DNA of 24,000 bases from Candidatus Saccharimonadota bacterium (GCA_028288985.1 JAQGHE010000007.1:1-24000), one strand, 5' to 3'; positions 1-17,244 are shown, counted from the stretch's first letter. Made by a program: numbers and translations. Notes: generated by a model from the letters alone, not told the origin.

Positions 1-3000
1 GACCGCGGTAACATCAAAGCCAACTTCAACAGTATCGGCGAGGTGACCTTCACTGATAAGAATGTGGTTTCTGATAATATTCGTAATTACGCCCCAAACG
101 GCTCGGACTTTTGCCGGCCCGATACGATTGTTTCTAATCCCGATAAGCTTAAGACAAACATCGGTTACGGCATCAACGTCAGCCCTGCCGGAAGTTTTAG
201 CGCCACGGCCGCCAACGGCCAAACCACGCTGGGCCTAGATGCGGAAGTAAAACTAGGTTTTAAGGGAGCAGCGGGTGCCTGCCAAGGTGTATTATTTAAG
301 GCTAAAATAAGCAACCCAGACGGCGTGGCGGAGGCTCTCTTCAAATGGAACGGAGCCAGCATATCAACTCTAGATGGGGCCCAAGACCAGTATACGTTTG
401 ACCAAGGCTCCGGCCTTCTCTACTTGTCGGGTTCTGCTTGCGGTACCTCAACTCTACGGGCAATCTTACTGGACTCTAGCGGGAGTAGCACCGGAAAATA
501 CTATGAGCTGCAAGACATTGGGTTCAACACCTCTAACATCCCTGGTCAATATCCGGCTCTCAATAAGCCTGAGTTCGGTTTTTCAGCCGGTTGTAATGTC
601 TTAGATGGAAGCTTCAAGACAATTAGGATTGCCGGCGCTTCAAGCGGCACCGGGCCCTCGTCATCTACCTCATCATCAACTACAGACGATACTTCCGCTT
701 GCATCCTTAATAGCAACACGACTCTGGAATGGCTTGCCTGTCCTGTAATAACAGCTATTAGTAAAACTGCCGATGGACTCAATAAATTAGTTGAAGATCA
801 GCTAAATTTCAAGACCCAGAAATTCTTAACGCCGGATGTACACAAAGTATGGGCGATCTTCAAAAACTTAGTATCGTCCATGCTTGTGATTGTGATGTTA
901 ATTATGGTTTTTGCACAGGCAATAGGCAGCCAACGGCTGGATGCCTACACGGTCAAAAAAATGCTGCCAAGGCTAGTGATCGCCGTCATAGGTATGCAGA
1001 TTTCATGGGATTTATGCCAGTGGATAATTGGGCTAGCAAACCACGCAGGGGAGGGGATAGGCCAGATAATGGCCGCGCCATTTGGAGGGGCTGGTAATTT
1101 GGATTTAGGTAGTTTGCTAAACCATCTTAACCCGGTGTGGGCAGGTGTAACGTCCGTTACATTAGTGGCTCTTTTGTTTGCAGCCCCCACCCTCGGCTTT
1201 CTATTTCTTCCCGGGGTCGCTTTGGCGGCCTTTGGGGTCTTTATGTCGGTATTAGTAGCACTGGCTACTTTGCTGTTCCGAAATGCGTTGATCATCACCC
1301 TAGTTATGGTATCGCCTATTGCACTCCTCCTATGGGTTTTCCCGGGTTCCGGGACACAGAAGTACTGGAAGTTATGGACGGATAACTTCACCAAAATACT
1401 GCTTCTCTTCCCAATCATGATATCTGTGATTTATGGAGGGCGTATTTTTGCCTATGTGGCGGGGGGACTTCAACCTCCGGGAGTTCTAGATTTTGTTATG
1501 GTATTAATAGGATTCTTTGCACCTTACGCCATACTGCCAAAGGCCTTCAAGTGGGGCGGATCGTTCCTCTCTGCGGCTTATCGAAATGCCGGCGAAAGCG
1601 GCCTAACCAAAAGGCTCCGTGATAGCGGCAATAGGCTTGTCGGGCAGGACTTCAATAACTACTGGAAGGGCAGGATGGCCCGTGAAAGGTATGATCCTTA
1701 TGATAAAAAGTATGGGGTCAGCAGGGCCAAAGTAAGAGGGAAAAGTATCCCAATCCCCATATTGAGGGGCAGGCTGGCGGGGAGGCTTGGTTCTCAGCAC
1801 TTGATGCCCACGGCCCACGGCCGCGCACAGGCCTTACGGGAGGGTGCTACCTGGGCAGGTGAGAGGAAGCAAGATGCTGAAGCCTTCGACAGAAGGATGT
1901 TTGACCTGGCCCAAGAACATGGTTATGCCGTCGATGAGGAAGACAAAGCCTTCCTGCCCGGATTGCCGGAAAATAAGAACAGAAAAGCCAAAAAATACAC
2001 AAATGCCAGGGGTGAAGAAAAGGAGGCCAGGTGGGAACCGGGCGTCGCCGCCGCCAAACAGGCCTTGGTTGATTTAACTTCAATTGCTAACAGTGGAGAT
2101 AAGCGTGTCTCGCAAATGGCCATAGATCTACTTGTTGCAACCAGTTCTAACCCTGAGATTGAAAACAATGTAGTCACCCACGGACCAGAGGCGGGTACCC
2201 GCGTATTCCGCACCAAGACATCAACCGGCAACACCGTCTGGGAAGAGTATATTGGCGGCAGCGACAAGTATGGCACCATAGCCCAAAGCAACTACGACCT
2301 TCAGACCCATGTCCTACAGTACAAATATGATAAAGAAAGGCCCGATCCAAAGAAGAACCCATTGGCGGCCTTCTTGTACGATAAGGCTTTGGTAGAAGGA
2401 CATACTCCCAAAGATCTTGAGGCCGGGACGATTAGAATGGATGACCCGGAGCGCACCCTATACGTAATGGCCAAGGACGCTACGCTGAATGAGTTATCTC
2501 CTCAGAGCCTAGGCTTCTGGCAGCGCCAGCAACGACACCAGCGCTCCGGTGACAAGGAAACACAGCAAGCAATAGGTGATGCCTTGCTGCTCAAACAATT
2601 CGCTAAACTGGTGGCCTTGGGTCCGGGCGGTGTGGGTCAATTTGCGCCTTTCAGGGGTGAGAAGGAAGATATTATCAATAGGATGTTGGCCGAATCCGGC
2701 GCCAAAACGCTAGATGGGAAAAACATAACCGTGGACAATTTGGTTGACATGGCCGGCGACCGCCAAAAATTAGAGGAACATGTCGCTTGGGCACGACCAA
2801 AGTCAAGAGCCCTTGGCGACGAAGACGATGATGGCCCCCCGCCACCACCGCCTCCAGGCGGCCCACCACCATCAGGCAGTCCGCCACCAGCTGGCTCGCC
2901 TCCAACTCCACCAACCAGCGGATCTTCGCCGCCATCGCCTAGTGACGGTCCGGAAACTCCTGCGGGGCCGAGCGCTTCAGGAGGGCTACCATCGGACCCC

Positions 3001-3399
3001 TCCCTCGGAGGAGGTGGTGGTGGCGCAGATGACCATACCGGTGACCGTTCTAGAAGTGCTGGTTCCGGGGCAGCCGGCACCAGAAACGCTTCCCCCAACG
3101 AGCTAATAGTCAATCATCGAAACCGAGCAGAGAACGTAAGCGGAAGCGCCACCGGCACAGGCGCCCCGATTGAAGTCAAGATTTCTTCAGAGTCTATGGG
3201 CGGTCTAACAGATCGCTTGAGACCGGCAATGAAATCTGAATTCAACAAATCGCTGGAAAATTCCGGCCTGATGGATAGACCGCGCCCTCAATGGACTCCA
3301 CCACCAAGTTCAGTCTCAACGCCACCCCCTGGAGCAACTATCCGGCCGAGTGAATCTCCCGAGGCGCCAGCAACCGAACCTGATGAGGAGAATAAGTAA
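1..3399 (+). CDS. VirB6/TrbL-like polytopic membrane protein of a T4SS-like apparatus, probably 5'-truncated by the window, with a long hydrophilic C-terminal region and a Pro/Gly-rich tail
   Basis: Frame 1 is open from nt 1 (DRGNIKANFNSIGE precedes the GTG at 43). The first ~270 aa have no signal peptide or TM although they look extracytoplasmic (Cys pairs, S/T linker GPSSSTSSSTTDD), so the true start is probably upstream. Residues ~270-500 carry about seven hydrophobic helices (e.g. LVSSMLVIVMLIMVFAQAI, VTLVALLFAAPTLGFLFLPGVALAAFGVFMSVLVALATLLF, LIITLVMVSPIALLLWVF, ILLLFPIMISVIYGGRIFAYVAGG, FVMVLIGFFAPYAIL). The gene sits directly upstream of the PrgI-like and VirB4 genes with a TAATG stop/start overlap at 3397-3401. 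The family call rests on architecture and context, not on a recognised motif. Confidence 0.6.
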   Translation, partial: DRGNIKANFNSIGEVTFTDKNVVSDNIRNYAPNGSDFCRPDTIVSNPDKLKTNIGYGINVSPAGSFSATAANGQTTLGLDAEVKLGFKGAAGACQGVLFKAKISNPDGVAEALFKWNGASISTLDGAQDQYTFDQGSGLLYLSGSACGTSTLRAILLDSSGSSTGKYYELQDIGFNTSNIPGQYPALNKPEFGFSAGCNVLDGSFKTIRIAGASSGTGPSSSTSSSTTDDTSACILNSNTTLEWLACPVITAISKTADGLNKLVEDQLNFKTQKFLTPDVHKVWAIFKNLVSSMLVIVMLIMVFAQAIGSQRLDAYTVKKMLPRLVIAVIGMQISWDLCQWIIGLANHAGEGIGQIMAAPFGGAGNLDLGSLLNHLNPVWAGVTSVTLVALLFAAPTLGFLFLPGVALAAFGVFMSVLVALATLLFRNALIITLVMVSPIALLLWVFPGSGTQKYWKLWTDNFTKILLLFPIMISVIYGGRIFAYVAGGLQPPGVLDFVMVLIGFFAPYAILPKAFKWGGSFLSAAYRNAGESGLTKRLRDSGNRLVGQDFNNYWKGRMARERYDPYDKKYGVSRAKVRGKSIPIPILRGRLAGRLGSQHLMPTAHGRAQALREGATWAGERKQDAEAFDRRMFDLAQEHGYAVDEEDKAFLPGLPENKNRKAKKYTNARGEEKEARWEPGVAAAKQALVDLTSIANSGDKRVSQMAIDLLVATSSNPEIENNVVTHGPEAGTRVFRTKTSTGNTVWEEYIGGSDKYGTIAQSNYDLQTHVLQYKYDKERPDPKKNPLAAFLYDKALVEGHTPKDLEAGTIRMDDPERTLYVMAKDATLNELSPQSLGFWQRQQRHQRSGDKETQQAIGDALLLKQFAKLVALGPGGVGQFAPFRGEKEDIINRMLAESGAKTLDGKNITVDNLVDMAGDRQKLEEHVAWARPKSRALGDEDDDGPPPPPPPGGPPPSGSPPPAGSPPTPPTSGSSPPSPSDGPETPAGPSASGGLPSDPSLGGGGGGADDHTGDRSRSAGSGAAGTRNASPNELIVNHRNRAENVSGSATGTGAPIEVKISSESMGGLTDRLRPAMKSEFNKSLENSGLMDRPRPQWTPPPSSVSTPPPGATIRPSESPEAPATEPDEENK
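2821..3025 (+). repeat. Low-complexity Pro/Ser/Gly-rich coding tract inside the VirB6-like gene
   Basis: Translates to DEDDDGPPPPPPPGGPPPSGSPPPAGSPPTPPTSGSSPPSPSDGPETPAGPSASGGLPSDPSLGGGGGG. The DNA is runs of ccn/ggn codons, which also create a stop-free antisense shadow ORF (2637..3113). Confidence 0.85.
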
Positions 3400-4406
3400 T
3401 GGCAGTATATAAGGTAATCCAGGATATTGAGGCCGAGGATAAACTGCTGGGACCGCTGACCTTCAAGGGCTTGGTTTATGCCGGGATAGCCGTAATCTGC
3501 GGCTTCATCAACTTCAAGCTTCTGACTGTCACAGCCCTAGGACCTTTTAAGTGGGTTTTAATTTTAGCTTTACTGTTTCCGATGATTCTGTTCGGTGTTT
3601 TAGCCTCTCCCCTTGGCCGGGAACAGCCGACTGAGGTGTGGCTGTTGTCGCGCGTGCGCTTTTTTCTAAAACCGCATGTGCGTATCTGGGACCAGTCCGG
3701 TATTACCGAGCTGGTAACCATTACCGTGCCCAAGAAAGTCATGAGGCAGCTGACTAAAAGCTTCAGCCAGGGCGAGGTAACCAGCCGGCTGCAGGCTCTC
3801 GCCACCACCCTTGATAGTCGCGGCTGGGCGGTTAAAAACATTAACGTAAACCTTAATGCCGAACCAAATTACTTTTCCGCCCAAGATGAGTCCGATCGGC
3901 TGATTGCCGCCGAGAACATGGCCATGGAAGTACCGGAAATTGATGTGCACGCCGCCGATGACATGCTAGACGAACAAAGCAATCCTACTGCTCAAAACTT
4001 CCAGAACATGATTGTCCAAGCTGAAGAAGCAAGGCGTCAACAGATGGCCGAGCGGTTAAACCAGGCTCGTTTGGCGGCTGAGACTGCCGCCGCCAAGGCC
4101 GCAGCCGAAGCAGCAAAGAGGCCCCCAAAATCTCTAATTCCCGAACCCGAACAAATAGAAAGGCTACAGGAAATCCATCCACATGAGGAGAAGATCCATG
4201 ACTTGCGGCCAATTTACGAGATCCACCGCAGTGCTAAATCCGGCTTAATTCACGACCTTAAATCAGGAAGCCCTAACAGAGTGACAGCCGAAGGCCAAAC
4301 TGATAAACTGGAGCTAGCCCAAAGTGGTAATGATTTAAGCGTGGCTTCTATCGCGAGTTTGGCAAACCGCAATCCCCGGGGTGAAGCGGCATCAGCAGCC
4401 AGTTAA
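3399..4406 (+). CDS. PrgI-family (VirB3-like) T4SS membrane protein with a ~200-aa C-terminal extension
   Basis: The N-terminus MAVYKVIQDIEAEDKLLGPLTFKGLVYAGIAVICGFINFKLL is followed by a second TM (FKWVLILALLFPMILFGVLASPL) and then GREQPTEVWLLSRVRFFLKP. This matches the pattern I know from PrgI-family proteins that precede VirB4 in Gram-positive conjugation systems. GAGGAG Shine-Dalgarno (SD) ~8 nt upstream; start overlaps the upstream stop (TAATG). The C-terminal part is hydrophilic with an Ala-rich, coiled-coil-like stretch (RRQQMAERLNQARLAAETAAAKAAAEAAK). Confidence 0.6.
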   Translation: MAVYKVIQDIEAEDKLLGPLTFKGLVYAGIAVICGFINFKLLTVTALGPFKWVLILALLFPMILFGVLASPLGREQPTEVWLLSRVRFFLKPHVRIWDQSGITELVTITVPKKVMRQLTKSFSQGEVTSRLQALATTLDSRGWAVKNINVNLNAEPNYFSAQDESDRLIAAENMAMEVPEIDVHAADDMLDEQSNPTAQNFQNMIVQAEEARRQQMAERLNQARLAAETAAAKAAAEAAKRPPKSLIPEPEQIERLQEIHPHEEKIHDLRPIYEIHRSAKSGLIHDLKSGSPNRVTAEGQTDKLELAQSGNDLSVASIASLANRNPRGEAASAAS

Positions 4407-4439: not shown

Positions 4440-5264
4440 ATGAATGACGCTCCTACAAATTATCAGACCACTCCAGCCGCGGCTGGCGGCCAACCCATGC
4501 CCGCGCAAACAGGCGCGGCGGCTGTTAAAAATAATCCCAACTCCACTCAAAATACGCTGTTAATAGGCGAGATTCGTGACGGTATCGTCATTATGAACGA
4601 CGGAACTTTCCGGGCGGTAGTTATGTGCAAATCGATCAACTTTGATCTGATGAGTCCCCAGGAAAGGGAAGCAGTGGAATTCAGCTACCAGGGATTCTTA
4701 AACTCACTATATTTTCCAGTCCAAATTTTTATCCGCAGCCAACGGGTCGATATCCGGCCTTACCTGGAGAAACTAGCCAAAATCCGCGGCGAGCACGACA
4801 ACATGCTGCTTGGTCTTTTGATGGATGATTACATCGACTTTCTGGCTAACATTGCCCAACAGACAAACATCATGGATAAGCGCTTTTATGTAGTCATCCA
4901 GTACCCGGACCCGGACGAAAAAGCCAGAAGCGCCCTGCGCCAATCGAAAAGCTTTTTTGGCGGCTTATCAGAGATGTTTACGCCCAATAAGATTCCTCAC
5001 ATCACCATAGACGAAACCCACCTGGAAAACGCCAAGACCGAACTGCGCAACCGGGTTCAGGCCGTCATGCAGGGGCTGCAGCAGTGCGGCGTACAGAGTC
5101 TGCCGCTTGATACCGAGGAACTGATTGAGCTTTATTACGGCGCCTATAACCCGGATACGGCTACCCGCCAGCAGCTTAAAAACTTCGAGAATATGACCGC
5201 TTCGGTTATCACGGGCGGAGCCGGGGCGGCTCCTCAGCCTAATCTTGATCGGGAGGTAAGCTAA
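4440..5264 (+). CDS. T4SS-associated protein resembling the N-terminal (pre-ATPase) domain of Tn916-Orf16/ConE-type VirB4, with no ATPase motifs
   Basis: A disordered N-terminus is followed by LLIGEIRDGIVIMNDGTFRAVVMCKSINFDLMSPQEREAVEFSYQGFLNSLYFPVQIFIRSQRVDIRPYLEKL. This follows the I-x-DGI-x-DG-x-Y/F...INF-x-L...E-x-E...F-x-x-FLN pattern I recall from N-termini of Gram-positive VirB4 homologues. No Walker motif is present. The stop overlaps the VirB4 start (TAATG at 5262-5266). The CDS is solid; the function is tentative. Confidence 0.55.
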   Translation: MNDAPTNYQTTPAAAGGQPMPAQTGAAAVKNNPNSTQNTLLIGEIRDGIVIMNDGTFRAVVMCKSINFDLMSPQEREAVEFSYQGFLNSLYFPVQIFIRSQRVDIRPYLEKLAKIRGEHDNMLLGLLMDDYIDFLANIAQQTNIMDKRFYVVIQYPDPDEKARSALRQSKSFFGGLSEMFTPNKIPHITIDETHLENAKTELRNRVQAVMQGLQQCGVQSLPLDTEELIELYYGAYNPDTATRQQLKNFENMTASVITGGAGAAPQPNLDREVS

Positions 5265-7189
5265 TGGGCTTACTTGGCAAAAGGAAGCAGCCCCAGGTAG
5301 ACCCGGCCGTTCTTCAGCAGGCCCGCGAACAGCAGGAGGTCAGCGCTGCTTTCGCTAAAGGCATTACGGCTCTACGCGACTTTATTGCTCCCAGTTCGCT
5401 GGAGTTTGCCGGCAATTATTTTCAGTTGGGCACGCGCTACGCCCGAACTTATTATGTGTACGGTTACCCGCGCCAACTTTACACCGGCTGGCTTTCCGGC
5501 ATGGTGAACCTCGATGAAGTCATCGACCTTTCGCTTATAGTCCAGCCCGTGCGAAGCGAGATCGTACTGGATAATCTGCGCAAAAAAGTTTCTCAGCTAG
5601 AAGCCGGTATCCAGATAGATTCCGAAAAGGGCAGGGTGCGCGACCCCGGTAAGCAAGCTGCTGTGCAGGATGCCGAGGAGATGCGCGATAAACTGCAGGT
5701 GGGCGAGGAACGTTTTTTCCGCTTCGGCCTGTACTTCACTATTTATGGCAGCTCAATGGAAGAACTGGAGTTCGTTAGCCACAAAGTTGAGTCGCTGCTC
5801 GGCCAGCAGCTAGTCTACTCCAAGCCGGCCACCGCCCAGCAGGAGCAGGCCCTAAATAGCGTAGTGCCGCAGTTTGCCGACCAACTGCAGATCTACCGCA
5901 ATATGAATACCGGCGCCCTGTCGACCAGCTTCCCATTCACATCGGCCGATTTGACGCAGGAAAACGGCATTTTGTACGGCATCAATATGCATAACTCCGG
6001 TCTGGTTATTTTTGACCGCTTCAGTTTAGAAAACGGCAACAGCGTAGTTTTTGCCAAATCCGGCGCCGGTAAAAGCTTTGCCGTAAAACTTGAGGCTCTG
6101 CGCAGCATGATGTTCGGTACCGAAATCTTTATAATCGATCCTGAAAACGAGTACCAGAAAATGTGCGACGCTGTCGGCGGGGCTTATGTGCGCCTCAGCC
6201 TTAATTCCAGCACGCGCATCAATCCGTTTGACTTGCCGCAAGTGGTCGACTCTGAGGAGTCCGACAACCCCCTGCGCTCCAACCTGATTACCCTGCACGG
6301 CTTGCTGCGCCTAATGATGGGCGGGGCTCAGGCTCAGGTGCAGCAGCAGGGCGGAACGACCATGATGCCGGCCCTTACCCCGGCAGAAGAGGCTGATCTG
6401 GATGCCGCCTTGATTGAGACTTATGCCAAAGCCGGTATTACTAATGATCCGCTGACGCATGGTTCGCCGCCGCCGACCATCAGTGATCTTTATGAAACAC
6501 TCCTGCACATGGGCGGCACTGGGCCGCAGCTGGCGCAGCGTCTGCGAAAATACACTAGCGGCACCTTCGCGGGCATCTTCAGCCAGCCCAGCAACGTCAA
6601 CGTCAATAACTCCATGGTAGTTTTCAACATTCGCGATCTGGAGGACGAGCTGCGCCCCGTGGCTATGTATATCGTGCTGAACCATATATGGAACCGCACC
6701 AAAGTGGATAAAAAGCGCCGCATGCTTATAGTCGACGAGGCCTGGCAGCTGATGAAATACGAAGACAGTGCAAACTTTTTATTCTCCTTGGCCAAACGGG
6801 CCCGCAAATATAACCTCGGCATCACTACCATAACCCAGGATGTGGAGGACTTTATGGCCAGCCGTATGGGCCGGGCAATTGTGGCCAATGCCAGCATGCA
6901 GCTGCTGCTTAAGCAGTCACCAACGGCTGTGGACGTCCTGGCCGACGTCTTTAAGCTGACTAGCGAAGAGAAGAAACGCCTCAGTCAATTTCCAGTCGGC
7001 CAAGGCTTATTTTTCGCCGGTCAAAACCACGTGCACATCCAGATCATACCCAGCCAAACTGAGGCCGATCTAATCAGCACCACGCCGGTGCCAACTCAAC
7101 AAACTCCAGCGAATCCCAATGTCTTACCTCAATATAGCCCTACTCCCCTCACTCCCGCTACCAATGAGATCCAGCCCCCGGGAGCTTAA
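5264..7189 (+). CDS. virB4: VirB4/TraE/PrgJ-type T4SS ATPase
   Basis: Walker A AKSGAGKS at 6053..6076 and Walker B LIVDEAW at 6725..6745. The PrgJ-like N-terminal domain is present (FIAPSSLEFAGNYFQLGTRYARTYYVYGYPRQLYTGWLSGMVNLDEVIDLSLIVQPV), and the C-terminal motif ITTITQDVEDF is typical of the family. GGGAGG SD 7 nt upstream. Confidence 0.9.
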   Translation: MGLLGKRKQPQVDPAVLQQAREQQEVSAAFAKGITALRDFIAPSSLEFAGNYFQLGTRYARTYYVYGYPRQLYTGWLSGMVNLDEVIDLSLIVQPVRSEIVLDNLRKKVSQLEAGIQIDSEKGRVRDPGKQAAVQDAEEMRDKLQVGEERFFRFGLYFTIYGSSMEELEFVSHKVESLLGQQLVYSKPATAQQEQALNSVVPQFADQLQIYRNMNTGALSTSFPFTSADLTQENGILYGINMHNSGLVIFDRFSLENGNSVVFAKSGAGKSFAVKLEALRSMMFGTEIFIIDPENEYQKMCDAVGGAYVRLSLNSSTRINPFDLPQVVDSEESDNPLRSNLITLHGLLRLMMGGAQAQVQQQGGTTMMPALTPAEEADLDAALIETYAKAGITNDPLTHGSPPPTISDLYETLLHMGGTGPQLAQRLRKYTSGTFAGIFSQPSNVNVNNSMVVFNIRDLEDELRPVAMYIVLNHIWNRTKVDKKRRMLIVDEAWQLMKYEDSANFLFSLAKRARKYNLGITTITQDVEDFMASRMGRAIVANASMQLLLKQSPTAVDVLADVFKLTSEEKKRLSQFPVGQGLFFAGQNHVHIQIIPSQTEADLISTTPVPTQQTPANPNVLPQYSPTPLTPATNEIQPPGA

Positions 7190-7202: not shown

Positions 7203-10200
7203 ATGGCTAATGTGACCCTAGACCCTCGTCAGCAGGGCAATTCTAGTCAAAACTCTGGCGGAAGGGGCCGGCGGACCCGCATCAGGCTAAAGGCCAACGT
7301 TGAAACCGAGACAAAAATTGACTCTGCAACCCCCGTTTCTTCCAGCTCTACTCAAAACGCTCCAGCGATTAATGCGAACAGCCCGGCGCCTGAACCGGCG
7401 CCAAGTGCGCCGTCAAGCTACGGCAATATGCAACCGGCTCAGTCGCCGTACGACTCTCCGGGGAGTCAAACTTCTGAACCGTGGGGTGGCTCTAAAAATA
7501 AAAGTGAGGATGGGCCTGCAGAGACCGGCAGAGGTGATCAGAATACTGGTAGGGCTGATAACCAAGAGGCGACTCAAAGTAATAATCAATCAGTTCCAAA
7601 TACTGCCCAGAGTAACCCTAATATGGGACAATCCCAGCCTACAGCCGGCACTAGAGAAAGTGGCGAGGACGACAAAAATACAAGCTACGGCAGCCAAGGG
7701 GCGAGTCCCAATAGCGGGGGCGGCGGGGAATCAAATGATACGACGGCAGACCCCCAAAAACCAGGCAGCCAAACTTCGGCGTCTGACATTAATGAGTCTA
7801 CTTACGATACTCCCGGCAACCAGCCCTCCAAAGCTGACGATGCTCAACCATCTGGCAATAGCAATCCGGAATCGGAAGGCAAACAATCGGCTTCTCCTCG
7901 GGAAAACTTAGCCAAAGAGGAGGCTGCAGCTGCCGGTTTTAATTACTCCGGAGGCTCAGGCCATGAGAACAAGGTAGGCAAAGGCTATAACAAAAGCCCG
8001 CTTGCTAAAAACCGCCTAGGATTTTTTGGCCAGCGACGGGCGCTTCTGGGCTTAATAAGCGTAGCCCTTGTCGGCGGACTGCTCTCTTTTGGCAGTTTTT
8101 TCAGCACCTTTAAGCTAAACGGTATCATGGAGAATGTTTCGGCCCGCACCTTCGCCCGGCTTAACGGGGTGGAAGATAGGCGCTCTCAGGCTTGGACGCG
8201 TGCCTACATACAGATGAGGTTGATGGACTGGGGCAATAACCCGGATATGACCCCAGGTAAAGAGGAGAATGCCTTGTTTCGGGCTAGCCGGGTCAATCAT
8301 GGATTTACGATTAACCAACTGGCGCTGGACTGGTACCGCACGCTGCGAACCTCGTCGTTCGAGCAGGATGTTTTTGAAAAGCATGGTATTAAGTTTACCT
8401 CTGTTTTCACAGCCGACGGTAAAGTGCGCCCCGGAATAATTAACATCAACGGCGAGAAGACAATGATTGAGCCGGGCAAGGATATACCGATTGCCGATTA
8501 TGAGGGTATTGCCAATGGCAATATAAAAGTCCTCAACAAATACCAAGCCATGCTTGATACCAAGGTCTTTGCTAACGATAAATCCGCCCGCAAAGAAATA
8601 AAGGCGGTTGTAGACAATAACACTCACCATTGGCAGGTTTTCCAGCGGCGGCAGATCAGAAAATCCATCCAGAATATGACGGGGGTACGAAACTGGCGCT
8701 TTTTTGAGAAAACCCGCAATAAGATTGATGATAGTAAAATAAAGATTCGCAACAATATAATCGCTGCCGCCATTCCGGAAAGTACAAAGTCCGGAAAGTT
8801 CGTACGTTGCCTGTTTGGTATATCCTCGTGTACATTCAGCGAGGATCCAGCAGACCCCCAAAATCAGAGCAATAGGGACCTGGCAGGCAACAGCACCACC
8901 AACCCTGGAGACTCCGTAAAAGAAATAGACCCTTCAACCGGCAAGACGATAGACAGCAAGGTTGTCATTGACCTTCAGCCGGCTGCCGATATGGTTAAGA
9001 AAGTAACGGCCGATATCCTGCAAAAGGCAGCACCTGTCATAAATGCTTTAAATATAGTCTCTACCCTGGATAGTCTGAAGGGTATCGATAAAGCTATCCA
9101 AAACAACGATATCAGCAAGTCCGTGGCGGTTGCCAGAGGCATACAGGCTATGGGGCTTTACCAGGTTTTCCAGACGGCCAGCGATCAGTTGAAGACCGGC
9201 CAAGTCAACGGACAGCAGGTCAATGAGTTTATGAAAGTCATCGGACCGGCAGCCTCCAGCGAAGGCTACACCAAAGTTATTGCCGGTAGTGGAGACGGTA
9301 CACCTTTTACGGCGCTTGGCTGGCCTAAATCAGTCAATGCGGCCGCCGACCCCACCAAACTGACCGATTCTGATAAAGCCAAATTTTACTGCACACCAGA
9401 AAACCAGGCTAAGCTGCAAAAAGACCCCAGCCTAGCCGACAAGGATCCAAGGTTTTCTTTCGCTTATCTGTGCCCGGACAAACAGATCGGCAGCAGCACC
9501 AACGCTAATAAAATACAAACCGCCTATAACAGTAGTATCGGCGGTGTCATCCACCCCCTCCTTACTGCCTATGGAAAGGTACGAGATATACCGCTCCTTG
9601 GCGATCTGCTTAGCCTCGCCAACAACATGCTAGGCAGATTATCCGGGTTGGCAACCTCGACTATAAAACCGATACTTTCTGCCCTGGGAATATCCGACGA
9701 CATTACCAAATTTATGGAGTACGTGACACTTAAGATTACCGCCTTCCTGGGCGCCGGGCCGATCATGTCCGGCACAGAGCAGGCTGGTGTTTTTATAAAC
9801 TGGGTGATCCAGGGCGGCGCCTACTCGGCCGAGGCCAGCTCTAGGGCTAACGGCGCTAGTCTTACCACTCCACAGAGCATGGCTGAGTCTACCTTGGCTC
9901 TTAACGGCTATCTGCAAGATAAAAATTCTCAAACCTCCGTGGCGACCAAACTGTTCTCTCTGTCTAATCCGGACTCGCTGGCTTATCGAGCATCGTTTGC
10001 CATCAGCGATCTCAGCCTTTCAAATATATCCAACCGTTTAGTTGGTTTTGCTTCCGGCTTTGGTTCTATTTTCGGATTAGCCTTCCACCATGCGGCCGCG
10101 GCTGCTCCCAGTGGCTATGCGGCTTCCAATTTTGCCGGCATACACACCTTTGATTTTCCATCCCAGTGCTACGGAGACCCTCTACTGGCGACCCCTCAAA

Positions 10201-10979
10201 GCAGCACCAATATCCAGCAGGTTCTCAAAGATAAGAATATCCCCGATAGCGAACTGACTTGGGATTTAGTTACTAATTCTGACAGCTGGTACCAATACGT
10301 CTACAGCAAGACAGACAACGACAGCCTAGCCCAACAGATATATAACTGTGCTCTGCTGGATACTTCTATCAGGGGCGGCCTTGGCAACTTATATGGCTAC
10401 ACCTCCGATAACGGCTTGAATGATTCGGCCGCGCCCTCGGCTGCTACTCAAGTAGCAGCCGGATCAGTGGATATGGCCAGTCTGTTTAATGACTCGCAGA
10501 GTGTCGCCTGTGCGCCAAACACTAAGGATTTGGGCATTCAAGATGGCTACCACACCGGTCAGCTGGTAAAAATCCGGATTTGTTCCGTGCCTGCGGTCCC
10601 CAGCACTTCCCAAGAAAGCAATGGGGGTTTTGGAGTAAGCGGAGCCGGAGGAGGGGTAGTGGTTAATTCCAGGGTCTCGGGAGCAGTCTATGCTATGGCT
10701 CAGGCCGCTAAAGCCAGCGGGGTTTCGCTTACGGCCACCAGCGGATTCAGGACTATGTCCCATCAGCAGTCGCTATGTCCTTGCGACGGCGTGAGGGTAG
10801 GCCTGCCTGGCTATTCCAATCACCAGATGGGATTGGCTATTGATTTTGGCGATCTGCCATCAACTCCGGGTCCTGTACCGGGCAATACCGTCTGGGCGTG
10901 GCTAAGCGGCAACGCTGACAAGTTCGGTTATAAAAATTACCAAGCCGAAGCCTGGCATTGGTCCCCGACCGGCAATTAA
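7203..10979 (+). CDS. Giant bitopic T4SS-associated protein: disordered cytoplasmic N-terminus, one TM, large extracytoplasmic region, C-terminal peptidase M15 (VanY/D-Ala-D-Ala carboxypeptidase-like) cell-wall hydrolase domain
   Basis: The ~280-aa N-terminus is S/N/Q/P/G-rich low complexity (7203..~8040). A single TM, ALLGLISVALVGGLLSFGSFFSTF, lies at ~8041..8110. The C-terminal motifs are SGFRTMSHQQSL, SNHQMGLAIDF (H-x6-D at 10821..10844) and AEAWHWSP (His at 10956..10958). Together these give the H/D/H zinc-ligand pattern of the VanY/M15B family. Confidence 0.75.
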   Translation: MANVTLDPRQQGNSSQNSGGRGRRTRIRLKANVETETKIDSATPVSSSSTQNAPAINANSPAPEPAPSAPSSYGNMQPAQSPYDSPGSQTSEPWGGSKNKSEDGPAETGRGDQNTGRADNQEATQSNNQSVPNTAQSNPNMGQSQPTAGTRESGEDDKNTSYGSQGASPNSGGGGESNDTTADPQKPGSQTSASDINESTYDTPGNQPSKADDAQPSGNSNPESEGKQSASPRENLAKEEAAAAGFNYSGGSGHENKVGKGYNKSPLAKNRLGFFGQRRALLGLISVALVGGLLSFGSFFSTFKLNGIMENVSARTFARLNGVEDRRSQAWTRAYIQMRLMDWGNNPDMTPGKEENALFRASRVNHGFTINQLALDWYRTLRTSSFEQDVFEKHGIKFTSVFTADGKVRPGIININGEKTMIEPGKDIPIADYEGIANGNIKVLNKYQAMLDTKVFANDKSARKEIKAVVDNNTHHWQVFQRRQIRKSIQNMTGVRNWRFFEKTRNKIDDSKIKIRNNIIAAAIPESTKSGKFVRCLFGISSCTFSEDPADPQNQSNRDLAGNSTTNPGDSVKEIDPSTGKTIDSKVVIDLQPAADMVKKVTADILQKAAPVINALNIVSTLDSLKGIDKAIQNNDISKSVAVARGIQAMGLYQVFQTASDQLKTGQVNGQQVNEFMKVIGPAASSEGYTKVIAGSGDGTPFTALGWPKSVNAAADPTKLTDSDKAKFYCTPENQAKLQKDPSLADKDPRFSFAYLCPDKQIGSSTNANKIQTAYNSSIGGVIHPLLTAYGKVRDIPLLGDLLSLANNMLGRLSGLATSTIKPILSALGISDDITKFMEYVTLKITAFLGAGPIMSGTEQAGVFINWVIQGGAYSAEASSRANGASLTTPQSMAESTLALNGYLQDKNSQTSVATKLFSLSNPDSLAYRASFAISDLSLSNISNRLVGFASGFGSIFGLAFHHAAAAAPSGYAASNFAGIHTFDFPSQCYGDPLLATPQSSTNIQQVLKDKNIPDSELTWDLVTNSDSWYQYVYSKTDNDSLAQQIYNCALLDTSIRGGLGNLYGYTSDNGLNDSAAPSAATQVAAGSVDMASLFNDSQSVACAPNTKDLGIQDGYHTGQLVKIRICSVPAVPSTSQESNGGFGVSGAGGGVVVNSRVSGAVYAMAQAAKASGVSLTATSGFRTMSHQQSLCPCDGVRVGLPGYSNHQMGLAIDFGDLPSTPGPVPGNTVWAWLSGNADKFGYKNYQAEAWHWSPTGN

Positions 10980-11104: not shown

Positions 11105-11590
11105 ATGCGCCGCAAGCGGACATTCGTTCTTCTGGTCATGAGCTTTGCAGCCATGACCGCAGTGTTCGGCGCCGCCACCGGCAGCGCCGCCACGACCTCG
11201 AAGAAGTTCAGCGTGACTCCCGTCTTGAGCAAACTTCCGGACGGGACCATCAAGGTTGTCCTCACCCTCAAGTACGACGGCCCCGGTAACTCCGGTCGGA
11301 TCTCCGTCGTCTACTCGAGCTTCGCTACGAGACCGTGGCATGTCCAGACGGTCCACCCCCTCATGGGTTCGCTGAAGGCCCGCGGCTACCAGTCGCGGCA
11401 CAACCCAAGTATGCCGGACTACGAAGTGATGGTGATCGGCGGGATCAACTCCGGCGACACCACTAGCGTCTCGGCGCTCTACAGGCTCCCCTTTAAGGGT
11501 GAGTTCTTCCTGAACTTCTTCAGCTGTCCGCTGAAGTACTACAAGAGCGACCCCAAGACCTACTGCGTGACCCAACTATTCCACATCTAA
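11105..11590 (+). CDS. Small secreted protein of unknown function in a compositionally foreign (high GC3) cassette
   Basis: ATG at 11105 is preceded by GAAAGGTGAG (SD-like); the GTG at 11090 in the ORF track is less likely. The N-terminus MRRKRTFVLLVMSFAAMTAVFGAATGSAA is a classic Sec signal peptide with A-x-A-like cleavage. The mature ~135 aa has two Cys (FSCPLKYYKSDPKTYC). Codon third positions are strongly G/C, and two hairpins follow the stop. I recognise no family. Confidence 0.75.
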   Translation: MRRKRTFVLLVMSFAAMTAVFGAATGSAATTSKKFSVTPVLSKLPDGTIKVVLTLKYDGPGNSGRISVVYSSFATRPWHVQTVHPLMGSLKARGYQSRHNPSMPDYEVMVIGGINSGDTTSVSALYRLPFKGEFFLNFFSCPLKYYKSDPKTYCVTQLFHI

Positions 11591-11624: not shown

Positions 11625-11643
11625 CACTCCCAAGTACGAGACG

Positions 11644-11669
11644 ACCCGCTAACAGCGGGTTTTTTGTTT
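11644..11669 (+). terminator. Rho-independent terminator (ACCCGC-TAACA-GCGGGT followed by TTTTTGTTT)
   Basis: A 6-bp GC-rich stem (11644..11649 / 11655..11660) is immediately followed by a T-run at 11661..11669. Confidence 0.8.
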
Positions 11670-11694
11670 ATAACACCTTAGGGCATGATAAAAT
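11664..11694 (+). promoter_or_regulatory. Candidate promoter with extended -10 (TGaTAAAAT) placed 6 nt before the ATG at 11701, implying a leaderless mRNA
   Basis: TTGTTT at 11664..11669, TG at 11686..11687 and TAAAAT at 11689..11694. A 6-nt spacer (ACGCTT) precedes ATG 11701. There is no SD-like purine tract before this ATG. Confidence 0.45.
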
Positions 11695-11700
11695 ACGCTT

Positions 11701-13005
11701 ATGCTAAAAGAAGGGCGCCGCAGAGCTTCGTGTGCATTGCTGACTCTTCTTTTTTTATGCCTATATATATTTTCTCCCGTTGCCAGCGCCATAAATGCTG
11801 ACGCTATAAAAGCCCTGCAGACGCCGTTTTATGACCCCAACGATAGCATTAGTTGCGGCTCGGCGGCAGTAGGATCAGTTGCTTCGCAGAAGAACATAGA
11901 CTATGCCGGGAGGCCTATTCTTAACCAGGGAATGCTGAAGGCTCTTGCTGAGAACCAGCCGGTTTACGTGCAGGCGGCGGACGCGGCCGGGATCCCTTGG
12001 CAGGCTTTAGCGGCGCTGCACTACCGGGAGCACAGCCTCATCGCCGACTCGCCGAACTCTGACGGAGCCTATCAGATAGTGGGCGGAAAGTACCCTGTGG
12101 GCAATCTGACAAAAGAGCAGTTTTTGGCCCAAAGCATTGATGCCGCTAACTTCATCAAACAGAAAGAGCCGGATTTAACCACAAGCCCCGCGGCAGCAAC
12201 CATAAAGAATGCCTTCGCCCTATATAACGGTTTGCCCGCTTTGTATAAAAGCCAGGCGGTAGCACTCGGATTCAAGGATTCTCAAGGCTATGAGGGCTCT
12301 CCGTATGTCATGAATATAGCAGACGCGCGGAGGGATAACAGCGCAGTGGGGGCTAACCCTAACACATGGCTGCAGTATAGAAGCGCTTCAATTACGGCGC
12401 CGGCCACCAATGACCAATATGGAGCATTTATGGTATACGCCAGCTTGGCCGGGCTGGCTGCTGACGGCGGAGCGTGCGTAGCCAGTACCTGCAGCAACGG
12501 ACCGAGTAATGCCAGCCAGGGATTAAGCCAGGTGCGTCAAAACGTGGTCTGCCTGACTCTGCAGGAGCTGCAAAAATGGGATGTACACAGCGGCAAACTA
12601 ACGCCTGGCAGCGGGTACCTTACATACAGCCAGGATCGCCACGAAGACTGGTGCGCCGACTTCGCCAGCTGGATATACAAACAGGCCGGCTACCCCTTTG
12701 GTGACGGAAACGCTTGGGGCATCCCGGGCGTAGCCAACATCCAGGCGCTAGGGGAGAAGGACAAGAATTTCCATTGGCACCCGGTTGGGACATATGGTCC
12801 CCAGCCCGGAGACCTGGCCATCCACGGCGACAACCACGGCGACTACCACGTGAACCTAGTTACCGGTGTCAACGGTGTCCACCTAACCCTGATCGGGGGC
12901 AACCAGGGCGGGTCCAGCGGCTTTGAAACATCAAGAGTGACAACCTATACGTCTTCGGATTTAACTGACGGAGGCGACATAACGGGCTTTGTGTCGCCGG
13001 AATAA
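11701..13005 (+). CDS. Secreted peptidoglycan hydrolase: C-terminal CHAP domain, possible N-terminal lytic-transglycosylase (SLT)-like region (TraG/PrgK/CwlT-type T4SS hydrolase)
   Basis: Signal peptide MLKEGRRRASCALLTLLFLCLYIFSPVASA. CHAP signature HEDWCADFASWIYKQAGYP (Cys codon 12652..12654) ... GDLAIHGD ... GDYHVNLV (His codon 12847..12849) ... LIGGNQG. The N-terminal half has GIPWQALAALHYREHS...DGAYQIVG (~11989..12090), which loosely recalls the SLT E-S ... G-x-x-Q pattern. This second domain is tentative. Confidence 0.75.
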   Translation: MLKEGRRRASCALLTLLFLCLYIFSPVASAINADAIKALQTPFYDPNDSISCGSAAVGSVASQKNIDYAGRPILNQGMLKALAENQPVYVQAADAAGIPWQALAALHYREHSLIADSPNSDGAYQIVGGKYPVGNLTKEQFLAQSIDAANFIKQKEPDLTTSPAAATIKNAFALYNGLPALYKSQAVALGFKDSQGYEGSPYVMNIADARRDNSAVGANPNTWLQYRSASITAPATNDQYGAFMVYASLAGLAADGGACVASTCSNGPSNASQGLSQVRQNVVCLTLQELQKWDVHSGKLTPGSGYLTYSQDRHEDWCADFASWIYKQAGYPFGDGNAWGIPGVANIQALGEKDKNFHWHPVGTYGPQPGDLAIHGDNHGDYHVNLVTGVNGVHLTLIGGNQGGSSGFETSRVTTYTSSDLTDGGDITGFVSPE

Positions 13006-13014
13006 GGAGATTTT

Positions 13015-13419
13015 ATGTATGACAATCGCCGAAAGAAAATGATAATCGCAGTTGGAGCGGTAGTGTTGGTGTTGATTGCCGGGGCTCTTATTGCAGTCCG
13101 TGGCAACAATCATGCGAAAGACCCTCTCCAGCAGCAGCAGGAGAAGTTCGATAAAACAGCTACGGCTGATCCGATTCTTAACTATCTGCCATATGGGGAC
13201 CTTGGCTACAATATCGTGCCCACCTTCATGGACAAGGATGGTAAACGAATCCTGGTTCTAAACGTATCAGTGATTCTGGCGGGAGCGGATTACAAGCTGC
13301 CGGCGGCGGCTCTTGATAAATTAATCGCTCAGCGGGAGCAGGACGCGCTTTCCTATATAAAATCATCCGGGTTCGATACCAACAAATACACGATTAGCTA
13401 TGAGGTGCCCGCTCACTAG
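13015..13419 (+). CDS. Small N-terminally membrane-anchored protein, last gene of the T4SS-like operon, function unknown
   Basis: Strong SD AAGGAG 7 nt upstream. One TM (MIIAVGAVVLVLIAGALIAV) is followed by a ~100-aa soluble domain. I recognise no family. Confidence 0.7.
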   Translation: MYDNRRKKMIIAVGAVVLVLIAGALIAVRGNNHAKDPLQQQQEKFDKTATADPILNYLPYGDLGYNIVPTFMDKDGKRILVLNVSVILAGADYKLPAAALDKLIAQREQDALSYIKSSGFDTNKYTISYEVPAH

Positions 13420-15585: not shown

Positions 15586-15855
15586 GTTTATTAAAATCCT
15601 TTTAAATTAATAGCAGTATTAGTTATAAGGCCTGTGGACACGGGGGATAATAAATGCGTATCGGGAGAAAAACTAGGCCTGGGGGTGTGTGTAAACCTGT
15701 GGACGATAAGTCGACAAACTGTGACTAGCCTGTGAGAAATTTCACAGAGACTTCTTAAAAATACAACGCTGGCTGTGGTATGTGTGGAGTAAACAGCGCT
15801 TTTTTCAGGCGTTTTCCCGGACTTGTACACGGGCTTTCCACAGAAAGAGGCAGCT
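15586..15855. promoter_or_regulatory. dnaA-dnaN intergenic origin element: DnaA-box-like sites plus an AT-rich candidate unwinding region next to dnaN
   Basis: TGTGGACA at 15633..15640, TGTGGACG at 15698..15705, TGTGGAG at 15783..15789 and CTTTCCACA at 15834..15842, all close variants of TTATCCACA or its complement. The stretch 15586..15628 is strongly AT-rich. Confidence 0.6.
15731..15746. promoter_or_regulatory. Perfect TGTGA-N6-TCACA palindrome (Crp/Fnr-family consensus half-sites)
   Basis: The sequence is TGTGAGAAATTTCACA and extends to CTGTGA...TCACAG (15730..15747). It lies in the dnaA-dnaN intergenic region. Its function is unknown. Confidence 0.3.
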
Positions 15856-17244
15856 TTATGCATAAAGTTTCTCCTTCAACTCATTAACGTATTGATGAAT
15901 AATGCTGTCGTAACTCATCTCTTTTTCGATTTTTTCAATGGAATGGATGGCGGTAGTGTGGTCTTTGCGGCCAAGTTCATGGGCGATCTTCGGGAAGCTG
16001 AGGTGAAGCTCGCTTCGGAGCATATACATGGCGATTTGGCGGGGAACTACTATATCCTTATCGCGTTTAGGGCCCAGGATGTCCTCCATGGAGACGTGGA
16101 AGTGTTTGGCGGTGCGTTCGATGATGTGGCGGGCGCTGATGTGCTTGGGGCGGTTCTTGCTGCCCTCGAACAAGGTGGAAACAATCTGGATGCTGGGTTC
16201 AACGGCCCGCATATCGCAGTAGGCCAGCAGCTGGTTGAGGGCACCCTCCAGCTCGCGGATGTTGCTTTGGACGCGGCTGGCTAAGAACTCCACTACGGCT
16301 GACTCGAGTTCGATATTTTGGGTGGCGGCCTTGGTCTGCAAAATAGCGCAGCGGGTTTCAAAATCAGGGTTTTGCATGTCGATAGTCATACCCCAGGCAA
16401 AGCGGCTGCGCAGGCGCTCTTCCAGCGTAGGAATGTCCTTGGGCTGTTTATCGCTGCTCATAATAATCTGGCGGTTGCCCTGATGAAGGGCGTTGAAGGT
16501 GTGGAAGAATTCCTCCTGGACTCTCTCCTTGCCGGCCAAAAACTGGACGTCATCTACGATTAAAACATCAGCACTGCGGTAGAAGCCGGCAAAGTCGCTG
16601 GTGTTCCTCTTGAAGCGCAGTGCGTCTACAAATTCTTGCACAAACTGCTCAGTAGATATGTAAACTACCTTGGCGCCGGGCCGGGCCGTTAATACGGCAT
16701 TGCCGACGGCTTGTATAAGGTGGGTTTTGCCTATACCGACACCGCCGTAAAGAAATAGGGGGTTATATTTAGTGCCCGGGGCGTTGGCGATAGATTGGCA
16801 AGCGGCGTAGGCCAGTTCGTTGCCGGCCCCAACCACGAAATTATCAAATGTGTACCTCTCATTGATGCCTTGGCGGTAAGTGTGGCTACCCTGGGCTACG
16901 GCCACCTTCGGACGGGTTGCGGTGACGGCCGGCGACGAGCCCTCGCTGCGGGGGTTTCTCAGCACATTGTCGTCATCCTGGCGGGAGGCCGGGCTCATTC
17001 CGGTATGTATTTTGTACTCTACACGGTCAGGTTCTACACCGTTCTTGGCCAGTACCTCTACGATCAGATCGTTGAACTTACGCTCCAGCTGGTTTTTGAC
17101 GAATATATTAGGGACTCCGACGATTACCACCCCGTCCCGGTTACGAATAAGTTGGGTGTTCTTGAACCACGTTACAAAGTTGCCTCTGGATATGCTTAGT
17201 TCAACTTCACCGAGGACTGCCTGCCATAGAGTGGTTTCTTGCAT
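15856..17244 (-). CDS. dnaA: Chromosomal replication initiator protein DnaA
   Basis: N-terminus LWQAVLGEVELSISRGNFVTWFKNTQL, AAA+ Walker A GGVGIGKTHL, Walker B VLIVDDVQFL, and the C-terminal DNA-binding helix-turn-helix HTTAIHSIEKI. Length 462 aa. Confidence 0.97.
   Translation of the reverse strand: MQETTLWQAVLGEVELSISRGNFVTWFKNTQLIRNRDGVVIVGVPNIFVKNQLERKFNDLIVEVLAKNGVEPDRVEYKIHTGMSPASRQDDDNVLRNPRSEGSSPAVTATRPKVAVAQGSHTYRQGINERYTFDNFVVGAGNELAYAACQSIANAPGTKYNPLFLYGGVGIGKTHLIQAVGNAVLTARPGAKVVYISTEQFVQEFVDALRFKRNTSDFAGFYRSADVLIVDDVQFLAGKERVQEEFFHTFNALHQGNRQIIMSSDKQPKDIPTLEERLRSRFAWGMTIDMQNPDFETRCAILQTKAATQNIELESAVVEFLASRVQSNIRELEGALNQLLAYCDMRAVEPSIQIVSTLFEGSKNRPKHISARHIIERTAKHFHVSMEDILGPKRDKDIVVPRQIAMYMLRSELHLSFPKIAHELGRKDHTTAIHSIEKIEKEMSYDSIIHQYVNELKEKLYA

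Follow-up and report, generated by a model that had tools for sequence, protein, structure and literature searches.

The gene described here lies in a stretch of 24,000 nucleotides from a Candidatus Saccharimonadota bacterium (GCA_028288985.1, JAQGHE010000007.1:1-24000), referred to below in its whole length as the window. An uninterrupted open reading frame (ORF) with an ATG start, at positions 7203-10979 of the plus strand, encodes a protein of 1258 aa that is identical to MDB5160721.1 (JWO96_101) of a Candidatus Saccharibacteria metagenome-assembled genome (MAG), where it is annotated as a 'hypothetical protein'. The gene is a member of what is called here the 'post-virB4' carrier family and stands in a cluster of type IV secretion system (T4SS) genes.

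It is the fifth gene of a co-directional block on the plus strand. The first three genes, assigned by library scan, encode a VirB6-like protein (43-3399, with TrbL_3 calls in the syntenic loci), a PrgI/VirB3-like protein (3399-4406, with PrgI calls in the syntenic loci) and a TrsD/TraC-like protein that corresponds to a detached N-terminal part of VirB4 (4440-5264); the fourth encodes a VirB4 ATPase of the CD1110 type (5264-7189), and its stop codon lies 13 nt ahead of the start of the target gene. The stop of the TrsD/TraC-like ORF overlaps the virB4 start, and a split VirB4 N-terminus of this kind has been reported for Patescibacteria generally. The target gene follows virB4 directly in the window and in all 10 of the homologue loci examined, which come from metagenomes and MAGs, and in every locus no more than a few dozen bases separate the virB4 stop from the start of the family member. 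The common order is VirB6-like, PrgI, TrsD-like, VirB4, the target family, a second hydrolase, a small protein and then recF-dnaN-dnaA, so that the T4SS context claimed in a preliminary description of this stretch is borne out by synteny. Beyond the block, the opposite strand encodes recF, dnaN and dnaA, after which come rnpA, yidC and jag; the entire T4SS block abuts the replication origin genes.

The protein begins with a low-complexity region (aa 1-275, 7203-8027), recognised by its composition and predicted to be cytoplasmic, followed by a single transmembrane (TM) signal-anchor helix recognised by hydropathy (aa ~276-300, 8028-8102) and by a conserved extracytoplasmic body of 762 aa, delimited by alignments and models (aa 305-1066, 8115-10400). 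The body is closed by a junction motif, YGY-T-S-D-N-G-L-N-D (10392-10424), after which alignment delimits an Ala/Ser/Gly-rich flexible linker of Gly, Ser, Ala and Thr (10425-10469) and a C-terminal M15B (VanY/LdcB-like) zinc peptidase module (10470-10976), the latter identified also by Pfam and by the sequences of solved structures. ORF, hydropathy and Pfam analyses therefore agree with the layout first proposed, consisting of a disordered N-terminus, a TM helix, a large ectodomain and a terminal M15/VanY peptidase, and the ectodomain of ~850 aa without known relatives is real, although it can now be divided into body, junction motif and linker.

The N-terminal region is rich in a few residues (S 15, G 12, N 10, A 10, P 9 and Q 7%, ~63% combined) and has no Cys at all; no tandem repeats of note were found in it, nor any tblastn match to aa 1-275 in the 10 syntenic loci. 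It is about twice as long as in the relatives, with 304 aa ahead of the body compared to 102-226 aa in 32 homologues of the first round, and its sole conserved piece is a short motif, (V/L)G-x-GY, which precedes the TM helix by ~25 aa. The hydrophobic part of the TM segment (aa ~278-300) reaches a Kyte-Doolittle maximum of 2.06, with K/R/RR just before it, whereas every other segment stays at or below 1.3, and no further membrane-inserting helices were found in the body by hydropathy. The protein is probably bitopic with its N-terminus inside and its C-terminus outside, an orientation that is supported by the positive-inside rule, by the six Cys that are conserved in the body and by the nature of the tail as a wall enzyme.

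The C-terminal tail matched Pfam VanY (PF02557) at aa 1154-1254 (nt 10662-10964) with E=3.1e-12 and a score of 46.8 bits, the curated gathering threshold being 25, and a profile search of PDB sequences also matched it to solved M15B chains, among them VanY-type carboxypeptidases, YodJ and LdcB. The motifs S-G-F-R1183, S-N-H1207-Q-M-G-L-A-I-D1214 and E1249-A-W-H1252 contain the complete catalytic set. The zinc ligands of the H-x6-D...H pattern (H1207, D1214 and H1252) aligned to the VanY structures and were kept in 33 of 33 family tails of the VanY type, as was the catalytic E1249 (E-x-x-H), and the substrate-binding R1183 (S-x-R) was present in 32 of them. The module also includes a conserved Cys-bearing segment ahead of the peptidase (C1103, C1127). 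By all the sequence criteria tested, the tail is a bona fide VanY/M15B member, so that the initial M15/VanY assignment holds, including the H/D/H triad on alignment with VanY members. The stand-alone enzymes LdcB, YodJ and VanY (PDB 4ox5, 4ox3, 5hnm, 5zhf) have the SxR, S-x-H-x2-G-x-A-x-D and E-x-W-H motifs in common with the target, but they are proteins of ~200-280 aa that act on own wall precursors or stem peptides, whereas here the M15B domain is the end module of a 1258-aa protein encoded in a T4SS locus and carries the extra Cys-containing segment. The tail also matched a module embedded in the phage tape-measure family PHROG 16823 (E=9.5e-9).

A first search retrieved 33 homologues, and a profile search among 1.84 billion representatives at E <= 1e-30 extended the body family to no fewer than 374 clusters formed at the 50% identity level. 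A hidden Markov model (HMM) of 739 positions was matched end to end, which defines a conserved body of ~740-760 aa ending in the YGY motif. The 22 confirmed loci in species-representative genomes were labelled Saccharibacteria, Saccharimonadales, Saccharimonadia or 'uncultured bacterium', with two exceptions. One is a 562-kb contig labelled Nevskiaceae (L018, DATLCF010000001.1), in which an M23-tailed member is annotated as 'M23 family metallopeptidase'; this bin is probably mislabelled, because the locus is of the Saccharibacteria type and the VirB4 directly upstream is 82% identical to that of the window. The other is a Parcubacteria-labelled contig with a weak match of 59 aa. Judged from these genomes, the family is restricted to Saccharibacteria, in which it occurs as a single copy per genome at a fixed, origin-proximal chromosomal locus; no orphan tail cassettes were found in the loci and species-representative genomes examined. 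Among the matches listed in an alignment-based homologue search, there were environmental sequences only and none from TM7x or Southlakia.

The body is mostly alpha-helical in the models and has six conserved Cys (536, 543, 730, 757, 989 and 1049). A model built from 78 sequences reached a predicted local distance difference test (pLDDT) score of 77 and a predicted template modelling (pTM) score of 0.81, with a single fold, compared to a pLDDT of 62 for an earlier model from 33 sequences. No match to the body was found in Pfam, NCBIfam or PHROGs, even in a lenient member-by-member scan of the 33 homologues, and among PDB sequences the profile search matched the tail alone. Foldseek with both body models gave best E-values of 1.5 and 1.6 (PDB) and 0.58 (viral BFVD), which amount to no match, so that the body does not match any family in these searches, as had been anticipated. 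Resemblances to ClyA/AhlB, to tape-measure proteins and to ABC-transporter helices were low-ranked, reflected the noise of long helices and were rejected; a tape-measure-like origin of the body was not supported by either the PHROG or the Foldseek searches. When the syntenic loci were compared to the window, the body was 34-50% identical, the VirB6-like protein 26-54%, PrgI 42-52%, TrsD 62-78% and VirB4 81-90%. By these identities, which are near those of the VirB6-like protein and PrgI and far below those of VirB4 and TrsD, the body diverges at the pace of the other exposed T4SS subunits and not exceptionally fast.

In contrast to the body, the C-terminal tail is exchangeable. Homology across tail classes ends at the junction, for which the consensus is YGY-[TK]-x-D-[ND]-G-[LY]-[ED]-[DS]; in the alignments, tail-less proteins stop 7-19 aa beyond YGY. 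A tail census was carried out on 161 members in which the body end was present, with one representative per 50% cluster. Forty-two of them (26%) were tail-less, ending 6-20 residues past the junction, and 117 had tails of 60-738 aa; in the tail-less loci L004 and L007 the genes end at genuine stop codons on the contigs and the next gene follows right after. By BLAST the tails sorted into 16 loose or 33 strict clusters. The VanY/M15B class was the commonest, with 33 tails, followed by a Pfam-less peptidase of the LAS type with 27 tails and an invariant S-x-H-y-x-G-x-A-v-D ... H-x-H pattern, which hhalign related to the VanY class (probability 94%, E=1e-7). An M15 tail, at first taken as unusual, is therefore nothing exceptional within this family.

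By Pfam and by profile comparison, the remaining tails were assigned to M23 (E=1.6e-29), M14 (E=8.7e-18), M74-like (E ~1e-5) and BSP (E=6.2e-15) metallopeptidases, to NlpC/P60 (E=1.6e-8), CHAP (E=2.5e-13) and C39-like (C39_2, E=6.2e-17) domains, to Amidase_2 (E=1.5e-10), Amidase_3 (E=1.2e-12) and SLT_2 (E=5.9e-7), to a GDSL esterase (E ~1e-12) and to an EEP phosphoesterase (E=3.5e-13) that occurs alone or with GDPD (E=7.5e-9), M23 or CHAP. The recognised tails are thus cell-envelope hydrolases, EEP being ambiguous, and a few short tails were left without assignment; no match to nuclease, deaminase or pore-former families was found among them. A tail domain of ~200 aa without a Pfam match is common to members P0020 and P0024 (~11700-12300 in L003), with an 'A-x-V-x-WW-x-L-[KR]-EG' stretch, and in P0024 it stands ahead of the M74-like peptidase.

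The class of the tail is nearly uncoupled from the phylogeny of the body, as far as the census allows it to be followed. The nearest neighbours by body had the same tail class in 50 of 150 cases, and pairs with 50-70% identical bodies shared it ~30% of the time. Parsimony on a neighbour-joining tree of the bodies with 150 tips and 31 classes required a minimum of 82 class changes, a count that is indicative only, because the tree is crude and holds one representative per 50% cluster. Close VanY-tailed relatives were 70-76% identical in the tail and 48-51% in the body, and the member P0008 was discordant, with 37% identity in the body and 61% in the tail, which suggests recombination. The survey of C-terminal swapping among orthologues was therefore clearly positive, with at least 16 unrelated tail clusters in addition to the tail-less forms.

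These data bear on the possibility that the protein is a housekeeping enzyme of wall maturation, i.e. a membrane-anchored DD- or LD-carboxypeptidase that lies beside the T4SS genes by accident. The own-wall metabolism in which the closest solved relatives LdcB, YodJ and VanY act would fit such a role, as would the fact that no partner gene was found. A fixed reaction, however, is not expected of a catalytic domain that can be replaced by unrelated enzymes or be absent, what is conserved in the protein is the 760-aa body rather than the enzyme, and the position after virB4 was invariant across the loci examined. A housekeeping function is consequently regarded as very improbable.

The gene has a counterpart in Southlakia epibionticum ML1, whose T4SS cluster adjoins dnaA-dnaN-recF with the same layout as in the window (Wang et al., 2023, Cell; PMC10633639). 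There, SEML1_0011 encodes the VirB6-like protein, SEML1_0010 PrgI, SEML1_0009 the TrsD-like protein and SEML1_0008 VirB4; SEML1_0007 is a 'hypothetical protein' of 1113 aa with an ECOD Hedgehog/DD-peptidase domain at 951-1105 (Tables S1 and S2 of that work), and SEML1_0006 has two lysozyme-like domains and a cysteine proteinase (PMC10633639). All the genes from SEML1_0005 to SEML1_0011 were scored as essential by transposon sequencing (Tn-seq), and the best structural neighbours listed for SEML1_0007 were proteins with a 'Peptidase M15B' or a 'Peptidase M23' domain (PMC10633639), which match the variation of tails found in the present family. Because the gene order corresponds to that of the Southlakia cluster, and given its size and domain description, the target is probably the positional orthologue of SEML1_0007. 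Both genes come directly after virB4, are dnaA-proximal, precede a lysozyme/cysteine-peptidase gene, encode proteins of the order of 1100 aa and end in a LAS domain, although the target has a much longer low-complexity N-terminus and a tail of the VanY type. By analogy with its Southlakia counterpart, the target gene may also be essential. In other work, the peptidase and lysozyme homologues encoded downstream of virB4 were suggested as possible replacements of VirB1 (PMC12102498), and the T4SS of Saccharibacteria was described as essential for epibiotic growth, with a role called completely unknown (PMC11665869).

Downstream of the target gene, the preliminary description had pointed to a small secreted protein, and this is indeed encoded at 11105-11590 of the plus strand (JWO96_102, 161 aa, with ATG 11105 as the most likely start), with a clear signal peptide. 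Its sole match among 5.8 billion protein clusters was itself. Of 11 loci, four have a small gene in this slot, which is flanked by the two hydrolase genes (the window, L005 at 9528-10076, L006 at 9338-9880 and L008 at 9294-9767), and the other 7 have none; the four products are exported, lipoprotein-like or TM-anchored. No similarity among the four was detected in an all-against-all BLAST. In L008, the closest VanY-tailed relative examined, the tail is 71% identical to that of the window, whereas the small neighbour of 157 aa is unrelated; in L009 and L010, which are also VanY-tailed, the slot has no small gene. A conserved immunity protein specific for the tail is not supported by these comparisons, because the 161-aa protein is an ORFan, its position is taken by an unrelated gene in L008 and it is missing from L009, L010 and the majority of the loci. 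The slot looks like a hot spot for small secreted proteins of fast turnover.

The layout had been likened to the logic of polymorphic toxins. In its full form, this rival reading would make the body the delivery carrier, the peptidase a warhead set free in or on a target cell so as to kill it, and the small secreted protein the cognate immunity factor. Part of this proposal stands, since the family has a conserved carrier, a variable C-terminus nearly uncoupled from the phylogeny of that carrier and a junction motif ahead of the variable part; the apparent recombination in P0008 and the small genes next to the carrier in four loci, mutually different as they are, can be read in the same sense. 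The partner gene, in contrast, did not stand, as described above. Neither a trafficking domain of a recognised type (LXG, PAAR/VgrG, TPS or MuF) was detected in Pfam and NCBIfam scans, the protein having a TM anchor instead, nor did the tails show diverse toxic activities, being envelope hydrolases where they could be identified. Moreover, more than a quarter of the members have no tail, the gene occurs in one copy at a fixed locus near the origin without orphan cassettes, and essentiality for growth, as scored for the positional orthologue, would be unexpected of a competition toxin. As read from its sequences, the family fails three of the four features that define polymorphic toxins (immunity gene, trafficking domain and diversity of activities), and a classical toxin is considered improbable.

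Between the small ORF and the next large gene, a consensus scan indicated a terminator-like hairpin (11643-11661) and a promoter-like site (11667-11694) on the plus strand. The next gene (11701-13005, plus strand) encodes a second secreted wall hydrolase, of 434 aa with a C-terminal CHAP domain, and is the counterpart of SEML1_0006. Thus, the canonical lysozyme/CHAP-type hydrolase that was expected of such a system is not the target but its large neighbour, which looks like the more canonical equivalent of VirB1. Corresponding genes were located in L001 (12263-13522), L003 (12948-15044), L006 (10021-11253), L008 (9884-11101), L009 (9217-10431) and L010 (9350-11233). This second hydrolase is also a mosaic, with Phage_lysozyme2, M15_4 (Peptidase_M15_4), M23, CHAP and C39_2 domains and, in L003, a fusion of Beta-lactamase2 with M23. 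Its signal peptide and an N-terminal 'LQ-x-PFYDP' motif are common to the loci, suggesting a docking or targeting part to which swappable enzymes are attached.

The last gene of the T4SS block (13015-13419, plus strand) encodes a TM protein of 134 aa, for which the match in L002, L004 and L007 is confined to the C-terminal half of the conserved gene that closes the locus (232, 240 and 218 aa, respectively), so that the N-terminal Ig-like part of these relatives appears to be missing. Farther away, an ORF of 90 aa without a Pfam match lies between dnaN and dnaA on the minus strand (15591-15863) and overlaps the dnaA stop by 8 nt; a gene of 83-115 aa is also present in the dnaN-dnaA slot in L002, L004, L006, L008, L009 and L010.

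Taken together, the results favour the reading that the target is a Saccharibacteria-specific structural subunit of the T4SS that tethers an interchangeable envelope-lytic enzyme, to which we assign a probability of roughly 70%. It is preferred because the body is conserved while the enzyme is optional and interchangeable, because the gene keeps a fixed slot after virB4 and because its positional orthologue is essential. According to this model, the protein would insert as a signal-anchor, leaving the disordered N-terminus with its membrane-proximal (V/L)GxGY motif in the cytoplasm beside VirB4 and TrsD. The helical body of ~760 aa, probably stabilised by disulfides, would stand outside the membrane, within or docked to the extracellular part of the machine, and the flexible Gly/Ser linker would present the M15B zinc peptidase in such a way that stem peptides are cut or trimmed only at the site of the machine. 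In combination with the secreted lysozyme/CHAP-type hydrolase of the neighbouring gene, such an arrangement could provide a VirB1-like function of wall opening.

Several points weigh against this reading. The link of the protein to the T4SS is one of gene order and of co-essentiality in another species, from which its physical membership of the machine would follow as probable, and the probable orthology with SEML1_0007 is one of position, of size and of how the domains are described. Among characterised M15B enzymes, the closest (VanY, LdcB and YodJ) are carboxypeptidases, which trim stem peptides and leave cross-links in place, and for this reason a simple cutting of holes is not guaranteed. 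Finally, because a quarter of the members are tail-less, the enzyme cannot be the core function of the family.

Whether the envelope that is cut would be that of the cell itself, that of the host or both stands at roughly even odds. The rapid turnover of tails together with the modules not directed to peptidoglycan (EEP, GDPD and GDSL) leans towards the host envelope, as does the presence of the same peptidase module in the PHROG tape-measure family. The tubular structures, possibly T4SS pili, that microscopy has shown to reach toward the host envelope in another patescibacterium lean in the same direction. Members without a tail, the lack of immunity genes and the fact that the nearest characterised M15B enzymes are carboxypeptidases lean instead towards a self-directed or accessory role.

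A more specific form of the structural-subunit reading is that of a device for host breaching and host range, in which a fast-evolving body would reach or recognise the host surface and the class of the tail would fit the chemistry of the host wall, be it the peptidoglycan chemotype, O-acetylation, teichoic acids or lipids, with tail swaps accompanying host switching. Tails turn over even between bodies of 50-70% identity, despite the fact that the wall of the lineage itself should be stable, and the EEP+GDPD, GDSL, BSP and M14 modules are atypical of a remodelling of the own wall for T4SS assembly. The peptidase module shared with the tape-measure family offers a parallel to virion-associated lysins, and the literature cited above ties the essentiality of the T4SS to epibiotic growth alone. 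On the other hand, there are tail-less members, the divergence of the body is not above that of the other exposed T4SS subunits, and no immunity gene was found; a cell whose own wall could also be attacked would require one, except where tethering or the chemistry of the wall gave protection. That tail classes are matched to host envelopes, and that their exchange sets which Actinobacteria are parasitised, is accordingly put forward as a tentative idea, possible but not the likelier outcome.

The gene itself was known as SEML1_0007 from supplementary tables (PMC10633639) and from one sentence of a later survey. No description of the body family, of its lack of a known fold, of its repertoire of tail cassettes or of the tail-less forms was found in the searchable literature. 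The analysis turns a 'hypothetical' T4SS gene into a large, Saccharibacteria-restricted family, with a body without known fold and a cassette tail that follows no immunity logic, and it corrects database names that depend on whichever tail is present ('M23 family metallopeptidase', 'MepM/NlpD'). The component has an unusual modular design and can be approached by experiment, since Southlakia and Nanosynbacter are genetically tractable. It may bear on the way in which ultrasmall parasites gain access to their hosts, and a cutting head that faces the host, if true, would be the first identified host-acting component of the essential Saccharibacteria T4SS.

In Gram-positive systems, VirB1-like hydrolases such as PrgK (pCF10), TraG (pIP501), TcpG (pCW3) and CwlT (ICEBs1) act locally so that the machine can cross the thick wall. 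Like the target, they are modular peptidoglycan hydrolases encoded in T4SS operons, either membrane-anchored or secreted. They are, however, essentially enzyme modules alone (SLT or lysozyme plus CHAP or NlpC-P60, sometimes LytM), whereas the target family is defined by a non-enzymatic body of 760 aa to which an optional, interchangeable enzyme, here M15B, is attached. No module that cleaves glycan strands (SLT, lysozyme or glucosaminidase) was detected in the target in Pfam and NCBIfam scans, and the CHAP and lysozyme-type modules of the window and of the syntenic loci belong to the large gene that follows. Thus, the target may work like a VirB1-type hydrolase and yet fail the domain definition of that family, since a glycosidase module is missing and the core that is conserved is not an enzyme.

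The polymorphic toxins (CdiA-CT, Rhs, LXG, MafB) share with the target family a conserved carrier, a demarcation motif and an exchangeable C-terminus, but the family differs from them in that it has no co-varying immunity gene, many tail-less members, a TM anchor and a place in a core locus that is probably essential. Phage tail lysins and tape-measure proteins resemble it as large structural parts of an envelope-penetrating machine with a swappable lytic module, and a host-facing cutting head, if it exists, would be their cellular analogue; the body nevertheless shows no similarity of sequence or fold to the phage proteins and is part of a membrane-anchored cellular protein encoded beside virB4. 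Finally, the bacteria-killing X-Tfes of Xanthomonadales are envelope-degrading enzymes (peptidoglycan hydrolases and lipases) of a T4SS in interbacterial interaction, as may be the case here. They are soluble substrates, which VirD4 recognises by an XVIPCD signal at their C-terminus, and have X-Tfi immunity lipoproteins as partners, whereas the target has neither an XVIPCD signal nor a VirD4 gene or a conserved immunity gene in its locus, and its enzyme would remain tethered outside the cell by the TM helix.

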